From IMG/VR virus record IMGVR_UViG_3300012942_000071, positions 1 to 43,452 of that record: DNA of 43,452 nucleotides. One strand, 5' to 3'. Positions 15,865 to 25,682 of this stretch are shown here, one piece after another. This stretch comes from a virus (Duplodnaviria > Caudoviricetes). Position numbers and translations under genes: made by a program. The notes below the pieces were generated by a model that had not been told where the DNA came from, made no database searches, and saw only the letters and a program-made list of their open reading frames with translations. The stretch's first letter is position 1; the number at the start of each line of letters is the position of its first letter.

Positions 15865-15941
15865 TGGTTGGGGAAGTGAGATTCGAACTCACTGTTTCGA
15901 TCTTATCAGAATCGCACCTATACCATATTGGAGTTTCCCCA
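15865..15941 (-). tRNA. tRNA-Ile(GAT)
   Basis: CGATT-CTGATAA-GATCG arm; T arm GTGAG-TTCGAAT-CTCAC; CCA; weak D arm. Confidence 0.8.
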
Positions 15942-15944
15942 AAG

Positions 15945-16016
15945 AGTGTTATGGCCGCTGTCCTAGCTAAAGGGAGTGCTCTTAGTTTAAAGGTAGAACC
16001 GTCCTCACCATAACAC
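15945..16016 (-). ncRNA. Unknown structured RNA A
   Basis: 9-bp closing stem GTGTTATGG/CCATAACAC, tRNA-sized, no T arm. Confidence 0.45.
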
Positions 16017-16018
16017 AG

Positions 16019-16094
16019 CCCCGGTCAAGGGATTCGAACCCCCATTTTCATCCATTACCGTTTACTGCTTAGAACACAGCGCGGTTACACCGGG
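16019..16094 (-). tRNA. Non-canonical tRNA-Arg(TCT)-like RNA with rewired D-arm
   Basis: Acceptor and T arm present; ACCG before and CGGT-AATGGA after the anticodon arm GCTGT-GTTCTAA-GCAGT. Confidence 0.7.
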
Positions 16095-16095
16095 T

Positions 16096-16169
16096 TGGAG
16101 GTAGATACCGGAGTCGAACCGGTCTATTTCGTTTTGCAGACGATAGGCTAGCCGATCACCCAATCTACC
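16096..16169 (-). tRNA. tRNA-Cys(GCA)
   Basis: GGTAGAT/ATCTACC, U73, CCA, loop CT-GCA-AA. Confidence 0.9.
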
Positions 16170-16170
16170 G

Positions 16171-16246
16171 TACCGGGTCCGGGGCTTGAACCCGGCTGAA
16201 CCTGATACCCTTTCAACATCTTATAAGGATGAGGGGATAACCCGGC
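16171..16246 (-). tRNA. Non-canonical tRNA-Ile(TAT)-like RNA with rewired D-arm
   Basis: GCCGGGT/ACCCGGT-A; CATC-CTTATAA-GATG; CCC...GGG-TATCAGG; T arm CCGGG-TTCAAGC-CCCGG. Confidence 0.75.
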
Positions 16247-16247
16247 T

Positions 16248-16321
16248 TGGTAGGCCCCCAGGGTACTGACCCCTGTTCCAGAGATTAAAAGTCAATTGCA
16301 TCACCTTAATGCTTGAGGCCC
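16248..16321 (-). tRNA. tRNA-Lys(TTT), degenerate
   Basis: Loop CT-TTT-AA, CCA; mismatched anticodon stem; T loop GTCAGTA. Confidence 0.65.
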
Positions 16322-16334
16322 ATGTTTAGTTGTT

Positions 16335-16413
16335 TGGCACGCGGGGCAGAAATCGAATCTGCAATGGCTGCTGATTCAAAGTCAGCGCTGCTACCGCCAG
16401 TGGACACCCGCGT
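16335..16413 (-). tRNA. tRNA-Gln(TTG)
   Basis: GCTGA-CTTTGAA-TCAGC; ACGCGGG/CCCGCGT-G-CCA. Confidence 0.85.
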
Positions 16414-16418
16414 AAAAG

Positions 16419-16491
16419 CTCTACCGCCCGAAGTCGAATCGAGACTAACAGGGTCAGAACCTGTCGTGCTACCTGATTACACTACGGTAGA
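16419..16491 (-). tRNA. tRNA-Gln(CTG)
   Basis: ACAGG-TTCTGAC-CCTGT; canonical D arm. Confidence 0.9.
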
Positions 16492-16493
16492 AG

Positions 16494-16566
16494 TGCGCCC
16501 GAGAGGATTCGAACCTCTAGTCTATTGGGTCGTAACCAATCGCAGTTTCCGTTGTGCTACGAGCGC
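16494..16566 (-). tRNA. tRNA-Arg(ACG)
   Basis: ATTGG-TTACGAC-CCAAT; canonical cloverleaf. Confidence 0.9.
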
Positions 16567-16569
16567 AAG

Positions 16570-16716
16570 TGTCCCCCAATTAAATTTCGATAGAGGATTT
16601 CTTGTCCCCCGAGAACGGTTTAACACGCCGCTCAACGCTCCCCAGCCATTCACAGGGCTTCTGCAACATTAAGCTGAACACATACGTCAGCGGTCAGTTG
16701 CGGTTGCACAATGTTT
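16570..16716 (-). ncRNA. Unknown structured RNA B
   Basis: Nested and tandem hairpins filling a ~155-nt gap between tRNAs. Confidence 0.45.
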
Positions 16717-16726
16717 AATTAGGTTG

Positions 16727-16797
16727 CTCCCCGCCGAGGTACCGAGCCTCGTCCAAGTCGTTAACAGCGACACATGCAGCCTTTACACCTGCGGGGA
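16727..16797 (-). tRNA. tRNA-Asn(GTT)
   Basis: GTCG-CTGTTAA-CGAC; TCCCCGC/GCGGGGA-G; T loop CTCGGTA. Confidence 0.8.
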
Positions 16798-16801
16798 ATA
16801 A

Positions 16802-16854
16802 GCGACAGTTTAACCCTAGGGTATCAGTTCAGCTTTCGCTCCGGCAACTGTCAG
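16802..16854 (-). ncRNA. Unknown structured RNA C
   Basis: GACAGTT/AACTGTC stem enclosing AGC-GAAA-GCT and ACC-CTAG-GGT hairpins. Confidence 0.45.
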
Positions 16855-16858
16855 CCGT

Positions 16859-16931
16859 TGGTCCTCTCGGTAGTATTCGAAACCACTTAGCTTCCGTGTA
16901 AGAGAAGTTAGCACAACCTATGCGCAAGAGG
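16859..16931 (-). tRNA. tRNA-Val(TAC)
   Basis: CTTCT-CTTACAC-GGAAG; CCTCTTG/CGAGAGG-A-CCA. Confidence 0.8.
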
Positions 16932-16932
16932 A

Positions 16933-17009
16933 TGGAGCCCTCGGAGTGAATCGAACACTCTGCTTACTGTTTACAAGACAGTCCCATATGCCATTTTTGG
17001 ATCGAGGGC
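16933..17009 (-). tRNA. tRNA-Thr(TGT)
   Basis: ACTGT-CTTGTAA-ACAGT; GCCCTCG/CGAGGGC; CCA. Confidence 0.85.
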
Positions 17010-17027
17010 AAGTATTAAATTGTCAAG

Positions 17028-17101
17028 AGGGATATGAGAGAATTGAACTCTCACCTGCTGTTTGGAAGACAGTTATGCAGAAACCACTACACCAATATCC
17101 C
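17028..17101 (-). tRNA. tRNA-Gly(TCC)
   Basis: Loop CT-TCC-AA; GGGATAT/ATATCCC, U73. Confidence 0.9.
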
Positions 17102-17105
17102 AAAG

Positions 17106-17176
17106 TACCCCCGCACAGAATTGAACTGTGCTTCACTGCTTAAGAGGCAGCTAGATCGCCACTATCTTTCAGGGGT
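17106..17176 (-). tRNA. tRNA-Lys(CTT)
   Basis: CTGC-CTCTTAA-GCAG; T arm CACAG-TTCAATT-CTGTG. Confidence 0.85.
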
Positions 17177-17211
17177 GTGTATTTAGTTATCAAATCGACC
17201 AAAGTAAATTT

Positions 17212-17282
17212 CAGTATCATCGGGACTCGAACCCAAACCTCCGGTTTCAAGGACCGGAGTGCTGCCATTACACCATGTTACG
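17212..17282 (-). tRNA. Atypical tRNA, Gln(TTG)-like with C33 and mismatched acceptor
   Basis: Gln-type D arm TGGTGTAATGGCAGCAC; CCGGT-CCTTGAA-ACCGG; canonical T arm. Confidence 0.6.
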
Positions 17283-17303
17283 TGATGTTTAATTTGGTAC
17301 TCG

Positions 17304-17387
17304 CGGACCAGGGAGAATTCGAATCTCATGCCTTTCGGCACCATCAAATTAGCAGTTTGAGGCCAACCCTGTTGACTTCCGTGATCC
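17304..17387 (-). tRNA. tRNA-Ser(GCT), atypical 8/4-like fold
   Basis: TCAAA-CTGCTAA-TTTGA; variable arm TGCC-GAAA-GGCA; G73. Confidence 0.8.
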
Positions 17388-17405
17388 ATGTATTAAGTTA
17401 GTAAA

Positions 17406-17560
17406 GTAGGAGCGTAGCGATTGGTGACGTTATTTCCGCTCGCTTTCCCCCACGGTGTGATCAACTCACCGTCCCGCCTACCAACTGTCCGCATAGGGGC
17501 GGGAGAACGCAACATTCACTACACAGCTTCGTGACGCGGTGTAAACAACACTTCATCTAC
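17406..17560 (-). ncRNA. Unknown structured RNA D
   Basis: TCCCGCC/GGCGGGA, ACGGTG/CACCGT and long closing helices in a ~175-nt gap. Confidence 0.5.
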
Positions 17561-17563
17561 GCG

Positions 17564-17650
17564 CGGGCTGTAAGGGATTCGAACCCCCACGTGATATCAC
17601 TACCACATCAACGTTTTCAAGACGCATAAGTACACCAAATACGACAGCCC
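17564..17650 (-). tRNA. tRNA-Ser(TGA)
   Basis: Loop CT-TGA-AA; long variable arm; GGGCTGT/ACAGCCC-G. Confidence 0.85.
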
Positions 17651-17656
17651 ATATTA

Positions 17657-17692
17657 AATTGAAAGCCCCCCGAATTTTGTTCGGAGGGCTTG
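17657..17692 (-). terminator. Terminator hairpin inside tRNA array
   Basis: AAGCCCTCCGAA-CAAAA-TTCGGGGGGCTT then TCAATTT. Confidence 0.75.
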
Positions 17693-17778
17693 TTTCAACA
17701 CAGAAAGGAGGTTTTATGCCACACCAAAGCAACGGACTGTAATGCTGCCCGTATTCTGTCGCTTCGATGTTTGCATGA
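17657..17778 (-). ncRNA. Candidate ~120-nt sRNA with anti-Shine-Dalgarno motif (contains leaderless 20-codon ORF 17714-17776)
   Basis: Bounded by promoter and terminator; contains ACCTCCTTTCT. Confidence 0.55.
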
Positions 17779-17782
17779 GTAT

Positions 17783-17812
17783 ATCTTACCACACTTTCTT
17801 TCCTTGTGTCAA
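17783..17812 (-). promoter_or_regulatory. SigA-type promoter TTGACA-N18-TAAGAT with TG extension
   Basis: Near-consensus; same TGTGGTAAGAT as at 19284-19294. Confidence 0.8.
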
Positions 17813-17814
17813 CG

Positions 17815-17896
17815 TAGCCCAACCGAGATTCGAACTCGGAGCAAATAAATGCACAGGGTCTAAGCCTGCTGCGTGAACCAGTTTCGCCATTGGGCC
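17815..17896 (-). tRNA. tRNA-Leu(TAG)
   Basis: GCAGG-CTTAGAC-CCTGT; long variable arm. Confidence 0.9.
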
Positions 17897-17897
17897 G

Positions 17898-17971
17898 TAG
17901 CTAGTGTGGGATTCGAACCCACAGCATTAGATGTTTTGAATATCTATGGTCTACCAGTTGCCTAACCAGCC
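17898..17971 (-). tRNA. tRNA-Leu(CAA), short variable region
   Basis: Loop TT-CAA-AA; D arm GGCAACTGGTAGACC; A73. Confidence 0.8.
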
Positions 17972-17972
17972 G

Positions 17973-18044
17973 TGTCCACTAGAAGAATCGAACTTCTGCG
18001 CACCGGGCTTCAACCGGTTGCTCTACCAACTGAGCTAAGAGGAC
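17973..18044 (-). tRNA. tRNA-Phe(GAA)
   Basis: ACCGG-TTGAAGC-CCGGT; TAGCTCAGTTGGTAGAGC. Confidence 0.9.
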
Positions 18045-18049
18045 GTACG

Positions 18050-18121
18050 TGGGGCAGGTAGGAGTCGAACCTACTCACGATAGATTTACAGTCTAAGTCC
18101 TGAGAACCGCCAGACTACCCC
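18050..18121 (-). tRNA. tRNA-Tyr(GTA), short variable region
   Basis: TAGA-CTGTAAA-TCTA; GGGGTAG/CTGCCCC-A. Confidence 0.8.
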
Positions 18122-18122
18122 G

Positions 18123-18193
18123 TATCGCCACGGAGAATTGAACTCCGAATAGCAGGTTGAGAACCTGCCGTTTTACCATTAAACTATGGCGAC
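18123..18193 (-). tRNA. tRNA-Glu(CTC)
   Basis: GCAGG-TTCTCAA-CCTGC; canonical. Confidence 0.9.
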
Positions 18194-18194
18194 G

Positions 18195-18267
18195 TACTCC
18201 GTGCCGGATTCGAACCGGCGATATCCAGGGTGAAAACCTGGGAGATTAACCACTATCCTAACGGAGC
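18195..18267 (-). tRNA. tRNA-Glu(TTC)
   Basis: CCAGG-TTTTCAC-CCTGG; canonical. Confidence 0.9.
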
Positions 18268-18268
18268 T

Positions 18269-18343
18269 TGGCGATCTAGACGGGTAACGATCCCGCTTCC
18301 CCCGCGCTGACAACGCGGTGCTTGTCCTTTCAGCTTCTAGACC
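18269..18343 (-). tRNA. tRNA-Asp(GTC)
   Basis: CCGCG-TTGTCAG-CGCGG; G73, CCA; T loop ATCGTTA. Confidence 0.85.
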
Positions 18344-18355
18344 AAACTATTTAAT

Positions 18356-18431
18356 TGGGGTGACTGGTGGGATTTGAACCCACATCTTCCTGGCTCACAA
18401 CCAAGCTATCTAACCATTGAACTACAGCCAC
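18356..18431 (-). tRNA. tRNA-His(GTG)
   Basis: CTTGG-TTGTGAG-CCAGG; C73, CCA. Confidence 0.9.
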
Positions 18432-18433
18432 AG

Positions 18434-18508
18434 TCCGGATGGGAGGATTCGAACCTCCGACCTTAAGCTTCCAAAGCAAACGACCTAACCAAACTAGCCC
18501 ACACCCGG
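18434..18508 (-). tRNA. tRNA-Pro(TGG)
   Basis: Loop TT-TGG-AA; CCGGGTG/CATCCGG-A; weak anticodon stem. Confidence 0.8.
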
Positions 18509-18515
18509 TTGATTC

Positions 18516-18594
18516 TGGCTTTCGCCCCCTGTATAAACACGTTTCGACACTCGTGTTAGATGCTCTTGGTCAGCCAAGACTATTAAGGGAGCCA
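18516..18594 (-). ncRNA. Unknown structured RNA E (three-way junction)
   Basis: TGGCT/AGCCA and CCCT/AGGG enclosing TCTTGG-CTGA-CCAAGA and AACACG-N10-CGTGTT. Confidence 0.5.
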
Positions 18595-18619
18595 CCCGCC
18601 ATAATATTCAATTTTCAAG

Positions 18620-18693
18620 TTGCAGAGGCGGGAATCGAACCCACGTAGTCGGCTTATGAGGCCGCGCCGGAACCGCCTCCGGTCTACTCTGCA
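18620..18693 (-). tRNA. tRNA-Met(CAT)
   Basis: CGGC-CTCATAA-GCCG; TGCAGAG/CTCTGCA-A; Met vs Ile2 identity not resolvable by eye. Confidence 0.85.
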
Positions 18694-18698
18694 ATACG

Positions 18699-18771
18699 TG
18701 GACCTGACGTGGATCGAACACGCTACCTCCTGTGTGCAAGACAGGCGTCATACCATTATGACTTCAAGCCC
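18699..18771 (-). tRNA. tRNA-Ala(TGC)
   Basis: CCTGT-CTTGCAC-ACAGG; G3:U70; 5' end overlaps HNH stop. Confidence 0.9.
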
Positions 18772-19109
18772 AAACTGCGTTTCTGTTTCCAGTTACGCAT
18801 GTATTCATTTTTTCTAGTCTTGCAAGGATCACACTTGCAATTTCTTTTACCGCTTAACCCGCCGCCATGTTCTACACCATTATCGAGTTTAGATTTTTCG
18901 ATGTGGCAACGATGACAAAGTAACTGCAACTTTGAAATTTCATCTGTAATGTCTGCGTTGGTAATCTTTTTGCTTACATTAAAGTCTTTAGTTGCTGGAT
19001 CAATGTGATCAAATTCAAGGTTATTCACGGAGCCGCATTGATTACAAGCGCCACCTAGCTGTGTAATTACTTCTGCTCTTCGAGTATGATAACGCGCGTT
19101 ATAATCCAT
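18756..19109 (-). CDS. HNH endonuclease
   Basis: CNQC...LEFDHIDP...LQLLCHRCH; AGGAGG RBS before ATG 19109. Confidence 0.9.
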   Translation of the reverse strand: MDYNARYHTRRAEVITQLGGACNQCGSVNNLEFDHIDPATKDFNVSKKITNADITDEISKLQLLCHRCHIEKSKLDNGVEHGGGLSGKRNCKCDPCKTRKNEYMRNWKQKRSLGLKS

Positions 19110-19120
19110 CCAACCTCCTA

Positions 19121-19148
19121 GCACTCTACCAATTGGAGCTAATGACCC
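19121..19148 (-). pseudogene. Orphan 5' tRNA fragment (Ala-like)
   Basis: GGGTCAT-TA-GCTC-CAATTGGTA-GAGT running straight into HNH RBS. Confidence 0.7.
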
Positions 19149-20273: not shown

Positions 20274-21030
20274 TTATGAAAGATCAGCCCAACTACGGCC
20301 TACGCTGTAGTCTGCTAGGAACGGTACCTTATTACCGAAGATCATTTGTCCGGTAGCACGGAACTCGGATGCAACGTACTGACCTATCAGGTCTGCATCC
20401 TCTTCCGGGCCTTCAATCATTAGTGCGTCGTGCACAATGTTGAAGATGTGGTAGCCGTTATCTTTCAGTGCTTCATTTATTCTGATACCTGTTGTTAGGC
20501 AGATATCACTAGCCGTACTCTGAGGCAGGAATGATAGTGCTTCTCGCTGAACGTTAAACACGTTCTTAGATGTGATTACTTCCGACTGGAACTTACGTCC
20601 GAACGGGTTGATCAGCAAACTACGCTTCTCGGGCGCGGTGGCTGCCTCCATAACGTCAAGACGCCACTGCTGGAACTTAGCTGCCGTGTTCAGGTAGTTA
20701 TCGATGATAGCAGAAGCCTCTTTAGTTGGCAACTTAAGTGACCGTGCTATGGCTGGCGCTTGACGCCCGAATGCAAGACCATACTGGACAGCCTTGCACT
20801 TAGTACGATCCTCCTTGTGCCCCACCGGGTCTGCCGCCTTGTACTCTTCAATGGTGCCGAATTGCTCTATCTTTGAGGGAAAGCATACGGGCATCATGTA
20901 GGTGTCAAAGAAATCACCTGCACCTTCCTGTAGAGCCTCGATCATCCAAGGATCATCTGACAGCAGCGCCATGACTCGATAATCGAAGCTCTGCCTGAGA
21001 TAAGTCTGCGTTAATCAGGGTTAGAGCCAT
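20274..21030 (-). CDS. DNA polymerase family A, C-terminal subunit (motifs A, B, C); frame interrupted by 7 nt at 20976-20982
   Basis: NADLSQAELR (frame of 21030) joins VMALL...RTKCKAVQYGLAFG...PQSTASD...IVHDAL (frame of 20972); GGAAGGTGA RBS before 21030. Confidence 0.9.
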
Positions 21031-21048
21031 TTGAATCACCTTCCAATC

Positions 21049-21273
21049 TTATGCCTTATCGCTTGACACATATCGCGCCACATACACTAGGCGGCGTATG
21101 CACTCCTTACGAGCTTCAACGTGTAGCCTGCGCCAAAGACTCATCTTCGCAGTTATTTGCTTAGGCGGATAACCGTATCTATCGGCTATCTTTTGAAAAT
21201 GCCAAGCTTTCTTTAAAGTTTTGATGAACCTACGCTTAAGCTTTGGCGTTGATAAATCAATTGCTGCCTTCAC
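21049..21273 (-). CDS. Basic hypothetical protein between polymerase halves
   Basis: 74 aa ORF, overlaps upstream stop. Confidence 0.55.
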   Translation of the reverse strand: MKAAIDLSTPKLKRRFIKTLKKAWHFQKIADRYGYPPKQITAKMSLWRRLHVEARKECIRRLVYVARYVSSDKA

Positions 21274-21529
21274 GCGGAATCACCCCCATTCCGTTACAGT
21301 GCCATTCTCCGCCTGCGTCCCGCCAAAGTGCGTAACGCTTTTCAGCTAACTCTAGCTGCCATTTCTGACCACAACAAACACAAGCATAACCTAGGCCCCA
21401 ATCACCTAGCCAGCCAAAGAATGCACAGCCACAACTAGGACAAGGGGTGCGCGGAAAGTATCCTCTCCAACCTATTTGACCTTTACCATCATTTGTGTTA
21501 TTAGGGTCATACCTAACCGGTTCACTCAT
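21257..21529 (-). CDS. Zn-ribbon protein between polymerase halves
   Basis: CPSC...CVCC; GGAGG-like RBS. Confidence 0.6.
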   Translation of the reverse strand: MSEPVRYDPNNTNDGKGQIGWRGYFPRTPCPSCGCAFFGWLGDWGLGYACVCCGQKWQLELAEKRYALWRDAGGEWHCNGMGVIPREGSN

Positions 21530-21719
21530 CTTCCTCACCTTCCTCTCCATCATCGTCTTCGTCTGGTTCGTTCGGCACGAAGCCGATAACCTTAGTGTTG
21601 CTAGACAGATTCATTTCCTGTGCTAACTCTTGTAGTTCAGCCGGACCATCAGACAAGATACCCAATAGGACACGTCCAGAATCGTCAGCCTCGTACTCTA
21701 TAATGCTAAACTTTCCCAT
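21522..21719 (-). CDS. Small acidic protein between polymerase halves
   Basis: Acidic C-terminal tail; overlapping start/stop. Confidence 0.6.
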   Translation of the reverse strand: MGKFSIIEYEADDSGRVLLGILSDGPAELQELAQEMNLSSNTKVIGFVPNEPDEDDDGEEGEEDE

Positions 21720-22014
21720 TGTCCCGTTTCTGTCTAATTCGGTATGCTGCACGAATAAGGTTATCGTATGCTTGTTCTATTGTTAAGTATGGTGTCATCA
21801 GCAACGCGTTTACTGTACTTTTGAATTCATCTATTTCTTTTTCATCAAGCCCAAGCGTCATAGCAGCTAGAGCAGCGATTACAGCAAACTCTCCACCATA
21901 TGGTGCAGACGCCGGAACTTGCTGTCCGGCGTAGTAGTCAATATCATTCGCCGTAACAATGTACCCGCCACTGCTATAGAATGGAACCTCTGGAACCTCT
22001 GGAACCTTAGCCAT
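21706..22014 (-). CDS. Hypothetical protein between polymerase halves
   Basis: Overlaps stop of N-terminal polymerase gene. Confidence 0.65.
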   Translation of the reverse strand: MAKVPEVPEVPFYSSGGYIVTANDIDYYAGQQVPASAPYGGEFAVIAALAAMTLGLDEKEIDEFKSTVNALLMTPYLTIEQAYDNLIRAAYRIRQKRDNGKV

Positions 22015-23389
22015 GAGTACTCACAATCCCCCTTACCCGCTTATCACGCGGTAGATTCTGCACGTTCGGCTGAGTGGAGCTAAGTCTACCCGTGCTCGTG
22101 CCGTGCACTAGGAATGTAGGATGAATTCTACCATTGCGGGCTTGCTTACGCCAGCCGTTAGCATACGTACTACTGATCTTACTCTCCTTACGGTACGCTA
22201 ACAACGCCTCGCAGAAGCTGCGTACTACACCTGAGCTAACTTCCTTAAGCTGTGTAATAGTTTCCTCGTCAGTTGACTTCACCATGACTTGCTGCGACAA
22301 CAGCCACTTTTTAATCTGCTGCGGACTATTCGGATTAAACGATAGGTCGCCGGTTATTACTCGCATAGACGCATTAAGAAGGGCCATTTGATTCGCACAA
22401 GCGTTGGTAAGCTGTACGGCATAGTTGTCGTCAAATGGAATACCGTAGTTCTCCACATCAAGCAAAAAGCTTGCTGCCGACATTTCCAAGGCGAACGCTT
22501 TCTCATTATCGGCATCGTTTGCAATCTGCGGGGCTAGAAACTTATAAAGCTCCAACGTCCAGAACACGTCCCAGCCGTTGTACGCTACCAACTTATCGTA
22601 GGGTATAAGTTCATAATGTCCGCCGCCCTTAAGATACTTTCGCAATCCGGCTTCCCATTCCGGGGCACCAAGATAACGCTGCGCAAGAGCCTTAAGACCG
22701 TGCATACCTGCTGCAATGTTCAGCACATGGTGTGCCAACATTGTATCAAACCACACATCAAGCTTTACACCAAGAACTCGGTTAAGTACTCTCGTGTCGA
22801 ACTTGCCGTTGTGATATACAGCCTTGGTAAAGTTAGGCAAAAATACGCGTAGACCATCAAGCTGCCAATTGTTCAATGGCCTGGATTGATTATTTTCGGG
22901 GTCAGGATTAACGATAACCCTGGGATAGGCCATACCCTCTTGCCACACCGCCACGGAGATAATGTTTACCTCGTCAGGCGTATGCTCCGAACCTAGATTA
23001 CCATCAGTTTCAATGTCGATAGCAATGGGCTCATCTAGGGCCAATCGTCCCAGCAATACATCGGCGTCCACAGTTGCCACAGGTCGCTGAAACGGGGGCT
23101 CGATAAACCCCCCGATCACCCGCTCAATAGCCGCCGACAACACAGTTGCCGCGTTAGGCTTAGTCATAAGTTGCGCAATAGAATACGTTTCTACATGCTC
23201 CCAGCCGTCCTTGATCATGTCTGGCGACTTACCGAAACACAGTAGTTTCTTCTGTGTAGCGGCGTTAAGGTCTGTAGTAAACGAAATGGATGAGCCCTTA
23301 AAGGACTCATCCACAATAGTTCTAATGACTTCTGCTGCTCGCGGCGTCAAAGCGTCCGCTGAATGTATAGCAATGATGTAATCACTCAT
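22007..23389 (-). CDS. DNA polymerase family A, N-terminal subunit (3'-5' exonuclease, thumb, start of palm)
   Basis: AIDIETDG, YHNGKFD, FDTMLAH, YNGWD, TSTGRLSSTQPNVQNLPR then stop. Confidence 0.9.
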   Translation of the reverse strand: MSDYIIAIHSADALTPRAAEVIRTIVDESFKGSSISFTTDLNAATQKKLLCFGKSPDMIKDGWEHVETYSIAQLMTKPNAATVLSAAIERVIGGFIEPPFQRPVATVDADVLLGRLALDEPIAIDIETDGNLGSEHTPDEVNIISVAVWQEGMAYPRVIVNPDPENNQSRPLNNWQLDGLRVFLPNFTKAVYHNGKFDTRVLNRVLGVKLDVWFDTMLAHHVLNIAAGMHGLKALAQRYLGAPEWEAGLRKYLKGGGHYELIPYDKLVAYNGWDVFWTLELYKFLAPQIANDADNEKAFALEMSAASFLLDVENYGIPFDDNYAVQLTNACANQMALLNASMRVITGDLSFNPNSPQQIKKWLLSQQVMVKSTDEETITQLKEVSSGVVRSFCEALLAYRKESKISSTYANGWRKQARNGRIHPTFLVHGTSTGRLSSTQPNVQNLPRDKRVRGIVSTHG

Positions 23390-25574: not shown

Positions 25575-25607
25575 GATAGCCTCCGTGTCGTAGTGTTTTA
25601 AGTGTTG

Positions 25608-25682
25608 TGGCTAAGTTGGGATTCGAACCCAAAGCATCCAAGATTTTAAGTCCCGGTGGTCTACCAGTTGCCATACAAAGCC
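25608..25682 (-). tRNA. tRNA-Leu(TAA), short variable region, isolated from array
   Basis: CGGGA-CTTAAAA-TCTTG; T arm TTGGG-TTCGAAT-CCCAA; two acceptor mismatches. Confidence 0.8.

Follow-up and report, generated by a model that had tools for sequence, protein, structure and literature searches.

Known systems of translational bypassing

Only a handful of natural systems of translational bypassing are known: gene 60 of phage T4 and its relatives, one yeast mitochondrion, and the partly tested terminases of Streptomyces phages. We describe here a candidate case in the DNA polymerase of an uncultured soil phage represented by IMG/VR record IMGVR_UViG_3300012942_000071, a metagenome assembly of 43,452 bases with an estimated completeness of 81%, which we refer to in its entirety as the window. 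Its polC gene, on the minus strand, encodes the C-terminal part of a split family A polymerase, and seven extra bases (TTA-T-CGA, 20976..20982) break the reading frame inside catalytic motif A. Comparison with related sequences suggests that, on balance, the seven bases are probably crossed by a programmed short-range ribosome hop from CGA 20985-20983 to CGA 20978-20976. A different insert is found one codon away in a sister clade, and the two inserts at one catalytic motif form a compact test case with a built-in comparison between a rare sense codon and a stop codon in the A site.

By analogy, the closest precedent for the window insert would be the UUA-linked gaps of phage terminase genes, 10 nucleotides (nt) long in Streptomyces phage phiHau3 (g6/g7/g8) and 7 nt long in the StrepC.1 and S. 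catenulae prophages (PMC10732093). For a UAA variant, a junction peptide was detected by mass spectrometry in E. coli, and Antonov et al. call their evidence supportive rather than proof (PMC10732093). The first-pass annotation of the window had appealed to UUA-associated bypassing proposed in Streptomyces phages, and that precedent is real. The terminases resemble the window in having a rare UUA at the head of a non-coding block of 7 or 10 nt within a conserved stretch of an essential phage gene, in having homologues without the block, in showing no variation in the length of the junction, and in having a landing codon that adjoins the resume site. The argument made there against frameshifting, that the extra residues are never seen, applies here too. 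The window insert is likewise a UUA-headed, frame-breaking block at a junction that is invariant among homologues. It differs in lying in a DNA polymerase gene, in a phage of 49% GC that has its own tRNA with a UAA anticodon. It also differs in having no prominent upstream Shine-Dalgarno or stem-loop signal and in having a sister clade with a stop codon in place of UUA.

In the T4 gene 39/mobA/gene 60 region, 50 nt are bypassed and the gap protects the DNA from the cassette endonuclease (bioRxiv 10.1101/2022.08.31.505936). The T4 cassette and the window share an essential enzyme gene split at a metal-binding catalytic site, extra open reading frames (ORFs) between the halves, a gap early in the downstream half, a landing codon that matches the take-off codon, and a slow or stop codon after take-off. 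In contrast, the gaps described here are 6-7 nt rather than 50, the hop would occur at codon 16 and would leave no room for a long nascent-peptide signal, and there is no significant stem-loop at take-off. The locus does not belong to the gene 60 type of mobile cassette, since Pfam and PHROGs searches found no homing endonuclease among the ORFs between polN, the gene for the N-terminal part of the polymerase, and polC.

Synthetic "stop-hops" and hungry-codon hops have been described in E. coli, where a stop or slow codon has matching codons on either side and 9 or 10 bases are read as one amino acid (PMC5009743). The sequence CTT TAG CTT of one sister-clade contig (L006) has exactly the stop-hop form, whereas the E. 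coli stop-hops were engineered constructs. Natural in-frame stop-hops were not known according to this 2016 review (PMC5009743), and a limited search of the literature from 2014 on gave no later report of one. The mitochondria of Magnusiomyces capitatus contain 81 "byps" per genome with relaxed codon matching (PMC5009743). These resemble the phage inserts in being short, in lying inside conserved genes and in being made harmless by translation. They differ from the phage inserts, which occur at one site per genome with exact or synonymous codon matches.

The seven-base insert in polC

The polC gene starts at ATG 21030-21028 and is preceded by a Shine-Dalgarno-like sequence (GGAAGGTGAT, 21035..21044, minus strand) that ends 4 bases before the start codon. 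Its first segment (20983..21030) consists of 16 codons, MALTLINADLSQAELR, which include the motif A Asp and end with CGA 20985-20983, the proposed take-off codon. The seven extra bases follow as TTA (20982-20980), T (20979) and a second CGA (20978-20976), the proposed landing codon, and the two CGA codons thus bracket TTA plus T on the minus strand. The second segment (20274..20975) contains the remaining polymerase domain (PF00476 positions 167-381), from the resume codon GTC 20975-20973 through MALLSDDPWM... to the stop codon. The frame break is therefore 16 codons into polC and within the motif DLSQAELRxMA.

The observations in the first-pass annotation were confirmed, and its interpretation was partly supported, as discussed below. 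The zero frame from ATG 21030 runs for 25 codons, MALTLINADLSQAELR and then LSSHGAAVR, before TGA 20955-20953 (20953..20955), so that a 25-residue product would result if UUA were decoded normally. The long ORF of 232 amino acids that starts at ATG 20972 (MALLSDDPWM...) lacks the motif A Asp. Omitting 20976-20982 joins AELR to VMALLS, read from 20975, to give ...DLSQAELRVMALLS.... As had also been noted, codon 10 of polC (21003-21001) is TTA as well.

The motif and its spacing are nearly invariant in the family. The 11 residues of DLSQAELRxMA are exact in 89 of 120 homologues, the motif spacing is kept in 91 of the 92 homologues that contain the region, and extra residues occur in none of the 92. 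No gap is needed to align the profile of the family with Taq polymerase (LLVALDYSQIELRVLAHLS). On alignment, skipping either the window insert or that of the sister clade restores the exact spacing of the family and of Taq. AlphaFold modelling of the closest relative without an insert (predicted local distance difference test score, pLDDT, 94.6) places the Asp in strand 3-11 and both insert positions inside helix 13-22. The model predicts that two extra residues would land in the middle of a helix beside the catalytic strand.

Conservation of the insert and selection on polC

We identified 29 related loci that span the site, in sets of 13 and 16, with some being the same contig present in two collections. 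In 27 of them DLSQAELRxMA is uninterrupted, and the other two, L006 and L010, have a different insert. Contigs from three other studies (X2, X6 and X7) span the site without an insertion or deletion relative to the window, and positions 20967-20991 are unchanged in them. Over 1801 bases, X2 has 80 differences from the window and X6 has 142 (4-8%); X7 is one contig of 399 bases. All site-spanning contigs in four runs contain the seven bases. This check was made on assembled contigs, in which minority variants would not show.

The differences accumulated among these contigs are mostly synonymous. Downstream, among the best-supported 40 of 164 differences, the 232-amino-acid part has 37 that are common to X2 and X6, in 33 codons, of which 25 are changed synonymously and 8 non-synonymously (conservative changes). 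In the 16 codons upstream of the insert, X6 has three changes (21022, 20998 and 20992), all of them synonymous. The base changed at 20966 leaves the residue intact when read in the polC frame but alters it in the zero-frame tail. These patterns indicate that polC is under purifying selection on both sides of the insert and has been since the insertion arose, and hence that the gene has not been dead since then. Both of the alternatives raised in the first-pass annotation fall away as a result: sequencing error because X2, X6 and X7 contain the identical seven bases at 4-8% divergence, and recent inactivating duplication because of the purifying selection that flanks the insert. The annotation had also proposed a search of relatives for the same or a different matched-codon insert, and both exist, the same one in X2, X6 and X7 and a different one in L006 and L010.

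A second insert in a sister clade

L006 and L010 are IMG/VR contigs from the same metagenome, and motif A of polC (within 2444-2503 in each) has a 6-base insert one codon upstream of the site in the window. L006 reads GAG CTT TAG CTT CGC TCT ATG and L010 reads GAG CTT TAG CTC CGT AGT ATG, and their nearest uninterrupted relative, L009, reads GAG CTT AGA AGT ATG. Over polC the two contigs differ by a proportion of synonymous differences (pS) of 0.72, which is near saturation, and a proportion of non-synonymous differences (pN) of 0.13, and the TAG is kept in both, as are its flanking Leu codons, which a single tRNA could read. The three codons from TAG to ATG also remain L-R-S through synonymous changes, including TCT/AGT, which favors translation across the stop over a restart at ATG.

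The two inserts have a common design, in which a take-off codon is followed by either a stop codon or the least used Leu codon, at most one further base, and the matching codon again. The landing codon adjoins the resume codon in each case, and the take-off and landing pairs are CGA/CGA in the window, CTT/CTT in L006 and CTT/CTC in L010. At take-off, the codon predicted to occupy the A site would be slow or a stop, with UUA being the rarest Leu codon in the window and TAG being used as a stop in L006 and L010. Reassignment of TAG in these two phages was considered and rejected, as 5 of 22 long ORFs in L006 and 7 of 36 in L010 terminate at TAG.

A quick tree separated the window clade from the TAG clade as supported groups, each with uninterrupted relatives, and showed the insert-free L009, P0055 and P0060 interleaved within the TAG clade. 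The interleaving suggests that the insert has been both gained and precisely lost.

Proposed mechanism and alternative explanations

In the mechanism that we propose, a peptidyl-tRNA-Arg would be paired with CGA in the P site while a slow UUA (in the sister clade, a UAG stop) occupies the A site. The peptidyl-tRNA would then unpair, the mRNA would slip by 7 bases (6 in the TAG clade), and the tRNA would pair again at the first triplet that matches, which on scanning forward from take-off is the landing CGA. Decoding would resume at GTC to give the canonical motif ...DLSQAELRVMALLS..., and any ribosome decoding UUA in the normal way would reach a stop after 9 more codons. Hopping fits the comparative data best, among them the second matched-codon insert, with its stop codon, in the sister clade. 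To that extent the matched-codon bypass of the first-pass annotation stands, with a +1 frameshift that adds two residues remaining as its main rival. The case rests on homology and not on the motif, since the matched-codon pattern is common.

TTA is the rarest Leu codon in the window, with 20 occurrences among 825 Leu codons (2.0 per 1000). It is nearly absent from the long ORFs, with none in those of 1454, 727 and 537 amino acids. Most occurrences are in small ORFs, and two fall within the first 17 codons of polC. The rarity of TTA had been placed by the first-pass annotation in a GC-rich actinobacterial setting; the rarity holds, but the window is not GC-rich (0.47-0.54 along its length). 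The link to actinobacteria is limited to the distant similarity of the replication proteins to those of actinophages and to the avoidance of TTA. A tRNA gene with a UAA anticodon, which reads UUA, is located just upstream of the primase gene and apart from the cluster of 20 tRNA genes (25607..25682, minus strand, 76 nt; Rfam tRNA, 35.3 bits). The anticodon loop is 7 nt long, but a long variable arm is lacking and the acceptor stem contains two mismatches, which make the amino acid identity and activity of the tRNA uncertain. We rejected the reading of UUAU by an expanded anticodon, given the normal 7-nt loop. The phage also has a tRNA-Arg gene with the anticodon ACG (16493..16566, minus strand, from the tRNA gene scan), which by wobble rules we take to be the kind that reads CGA.

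Several points weigh against hopping. If active, the phage tRNA(UAA) would favor normal decoding of UUA, and the TTA at codon 10 of polC must be read normally. Short hops are inefficient in E. coli without stimulators, and none was found here: RNA folds at the site were no better than those of shuffled sequences (z -0.2 to -0.8), and Rfam had no match at the insert site. The small hairpin noted by the first-pass annotation exists but is at chance level, with 78 of 200 shuffles of the 31-nt stretch folding as well. A perfect hairpin of 7 bp surrounds the site in L010, and neither L006 nor the window has one like it. A blind matched-codon scan gave 19 matches in the window and was too noisy to locate further sites. 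A suppressor tRNA could decode the TAG in L006 and L010, although none was found in their contigs, which have a completeness of 41% and 32%. Finally, a third lineage, known from the protein P0105, looks like a further kind of frame break in motif A. P0105 starts MTSPNYLAELRVMA, in which T-S-P-N is the +1-frame reading of the D-L-S-Q codons. In this lineage, the Gln codon is probably followed by an interruption of (3n+1) bases that begins with TTA or CTA and has no evident matched pair, which would fit a +1 shift better. Among the seven mates of P0105 in its cluster (P0127-P0133, at least 90% identity), five start at the Met of RVMA and two are full length.

A shift of this kind belongs to a rather unlikely alternative, recoding that adds two residues, by +1 frameshifting in the window and by TAG readthrough in L006 and L010 (product AEL-X-L-RSMA). 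The +1 frame is free of stops across the gap, and the shift could take either of two routes. In one, tRNA-Leu in the P site would slip from CUU onto UUC while CGA occupies the A site (product AEL-DY-RVMA); in the other, tRNA-Tyr would bind UAU out of frame during slow decoding of UUA (product AELR-YR-VMA). At the +1 sites of prfB and Ty1, a CUU in the P site is followed by a slower codon, and the window also has CUU in the P site and needs a shift of +1 modulo 3. P0105 also speaks for a +1 shift, with an apparent break after the Gln codon, no matched landing codon, and a Tyr codon that overlaps the extra Leu codon as in the window, and the phage tRNA(UAA) makes a long pause at UUA less likely. 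Unlike the prfB and Ty1 sites, however, the window has no evident Shine-Dalgarno stimulator at the right spacing, and the A-site CGA of a CUU-CGA shift is not rare (6.3 per 1000). The two residues that either route would add occur in none of the 92 homologues with the region, as described above, with the spacing identical to that of Taq, and they are predicted to fall mid-helix next to the catalytic strand. A shift of the prfB/Ty1 type cannot explain the in-frame TAG insert, and two unrelated mechanisms would be needed for two inserts at one spot. The TAG itself has persisted at a pS of 0.72, and the only other state in its clade is the precise absence of the insert; had a two-residue insertion been tolerated, the TAG should have mutated to a sense codon.

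The polymerase could instead function in three pieces, with the released Asp peptide, of 25 residues in the window or 15 in L006, complementing polN and a 232-residue polC restarted at the ATG of ...RVMA.... Coupled re-initiation is conceivable, as the zero-frame stop is 17 bases downstream of ATG 20972 in the window and 9 bases upstream of the ATG in L006, and gene callers already give 232-residue products. We nevertheless regard this arrangement as very unlikely: there is no Shine-Dalgarno-like sequence ahead of ATG 20972, the L-R-S codons between stop and ATG are kept by synonymous changes between L006 and L010, the conserved Arg of ELR would be lost, and the palm domain would need to incorporate a separate strand of 15 residues, an arrangement for which we found no precedent, with no search aimed at one. 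About equally improbable is correction at the level of nucleic acid, by slippage that deletes the insert from some of the DNA or RNA, between the short direct repeats TCGA...TCGA for the window and AGCT...AGCT for the L006 and L010 pair. The matched codons do double as direct repeats permitting precise deletion, and the insert-free relatives interleaved in the TAG clade speak for precise loss or gain over evolutionary time. Against slippage, the insert is present in all site-spanning contigs of the four runs, slippage across repeats of 4-5 bases is rare, and, unless the insert were advantageous, revertants without it should come to predominate. We find it hardly credible that the gene is simply broken, either by an assembly error or because the phage is defective and its polymerase was recently inactivated. 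In favor of this reading, the record comes from metagenome assembly, has a completeness of 81% and was compared with contigs; but the seven bases are shared with three other studies at 4-8% divergence, the flanking changes are mostly synonymous, and polN, the primase gene and the other long ORFs are intact in the record, which has no second DNA polymerase gene of family A or B.

Possible functions of the inserts

If ribosome hopping does occur at these sites, a broader picture can be proposed tentatively, which we regard as possible but short of probable. A family of uncultured soil siphoviruses with a split polymerase would have natural short hops at a single hot spot in motif A, over a rare codon in one clade (CGA-UUA-U-CGA) and, as the first natural "stop-hop", over a stop codon in another (CUU-UAG-CUU). 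Repeated gain and loss of the inserts might then reflect the disruption of a nuclease or homing target in DNA that has no other way to change, in a motif where a distant relative has an intein-like insert, or the coupling of polymerase synthesis to the supply of tRNA or release factor.

The inserts could serve to limit or time the synthesis of PolC, or they could disrupt a nuclease target in the highly conserved DNA of motif A, as the gap in the T4 gene 60 cassette does. Regulation through the supply of tRNA or release factor is as plausible as nuclease protection. The specific proposal of the first-pass annotation, that polymerase synthesis is gated by the supply of tRNA-Leu(UAA), was speculative and unproven, and it is complicated by the phage's own UAA tRNA and by the TTA at codon 10. 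If the inserts do shield conserved DNA from a nuclease, the principle behind the gene 60 cassette would hold even for inserts as small as these.

Organization of the split polymerase

The polymerase is of the split family A form, with exonuclease and polymerase domains encoded by two genes that lie close together and are cut before motif A. The N-terminal part, polN (22007..23389, minus strand, 460 amino acids), contains the 3'-5' exonuclease (PF01612) and the start of the polymerase domain (PF00476 positions 5-137) and ends with ...PRDKRVRGIVSTHG. In relatives whose C-terminal parts are 55-77% identical to that of the window, the polymerase is likewise divided between two genes immediately ahead of motif A, with the C-terminal part starting M-x-x-L-I-N-x-D-L-S-Q-A-E-L-R-x-M-A. 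The split point is identical in all 28 loci of the close family, and the split is also present in relatives without any insert. Distant relatives are unsplit, as is the homologue in phage Jojan60 (45% identity).

Four small ORFs (102, 76, 98 and 74 amino acids) are located between polN and polC (21049..22014, minus strand). They matched no Pfam family and had no endonuclease domain in Pfam or PHROGs; one had a weak PHROG match. The ORF of 76 amino acids has an acidic tail, and an ORF with an acidic tail recurs upstream of polC in L006, L008, L010, L011, L088 and L098. A short ORF with such a tail (...GF.PNP.(D/E)n) is directly upstream of polC in several phages. The small ORFs that occupy the slot between polN and polC differ among relatives, as seen in the window (21049-22014), in L086 (2298-2957) and upstream of polC in L006 and L010.

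Short gene calls and other unusual lineages

In public protein sets, gene calls for about one quarter of the homologues give truncated products of 232-233 amino acids, and sites of this kind may often be mis-annotated. DNA evidence was available for four of the short gene calls that start at or just after the Met of RxMA. The 7-nt insert is present in P0001, from an X6 contig, and the TAG insert in P0028, from L006. P0059 falls near L010, and P0047, from L090, is only a miscall at a TTG start. The last case means that the length of a gene call is by itself no evidence of an insert. A further 24 short-called homologues are known from protein calls alone.

In another run, X9, two contigs about 92% identical to polC match positions 20886-20972, with the match ending exactly at the ATG. 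The reverse-complemented consensus of their loose ends (agreement 0.7) has an apparent TAG two codons before R-V-M, which may be another insert of the stop type and is too uncertain to count.

The unsplit relative L065 (29-3172), a fusion of UDG and polymerase, has an insert of about 230 amino acids in motif A, between DY and CQNELRV. With an N-terminal Cys, a C-terminal His-Asn and a LAGFLDGEG stretch, this insert looks like an intein. Pfam called no intein domain in L065, only UDG and DNA_pol_A, in two stretches. To judge from this intein-like insert, the DNA of motif A may be a target for selfish elements in the wider family. In L061 and L148, which are the same contig, the polymerase changes frame about 240 bases upstream of motif A, and about 100 residues before ...KNPNMQNI... 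seem to be missing; the change could be a deletion, a misassembly or another break.

Genome context

No near-identical phage record was found by megablast against the phage collection. The closest isolate match by protein was Stenotrophomonas phage Jojan60 (44.8% identity), and a search of the genome collection gave two distant relatives only (30-34% identity). Apart from the Stenotrophomonas phage at 45%, the primase and polymerase are nearest to actinophage proteins (34-38% identity), and 64 of the 82 primase matches were from phages of Microbacterium, Arthrobacter, Gordonia, Streptomyces, Clavibacter or Curtobacterium.

The replication module is on the minus strand and includes a primase, a helicase, an exonuclease and a Sak4-like protein. 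The order on that strand is tRNA(UAA) (25682-25607), the primase-like gene (25565-23382), polN (23389-22007), the four small ORFs (22014-21049) and polC, which places the primase-like gene between the tRNA gene and polN. Between the replication genes and the tRNA cluster, 1.2 kb downstream of polC, is a gene for an HNH endonuclease (18756-19124, minus strand; PF01844, 24.3 bits), which has no demonstrated tie to the polymerase insert. The window contains 21 tRNA genes, 20 of them in the cluster at 15865-18771. The phage is siphovirus-like, with genes for the major tail, tape measure and minor tail proteins on the plus strand.

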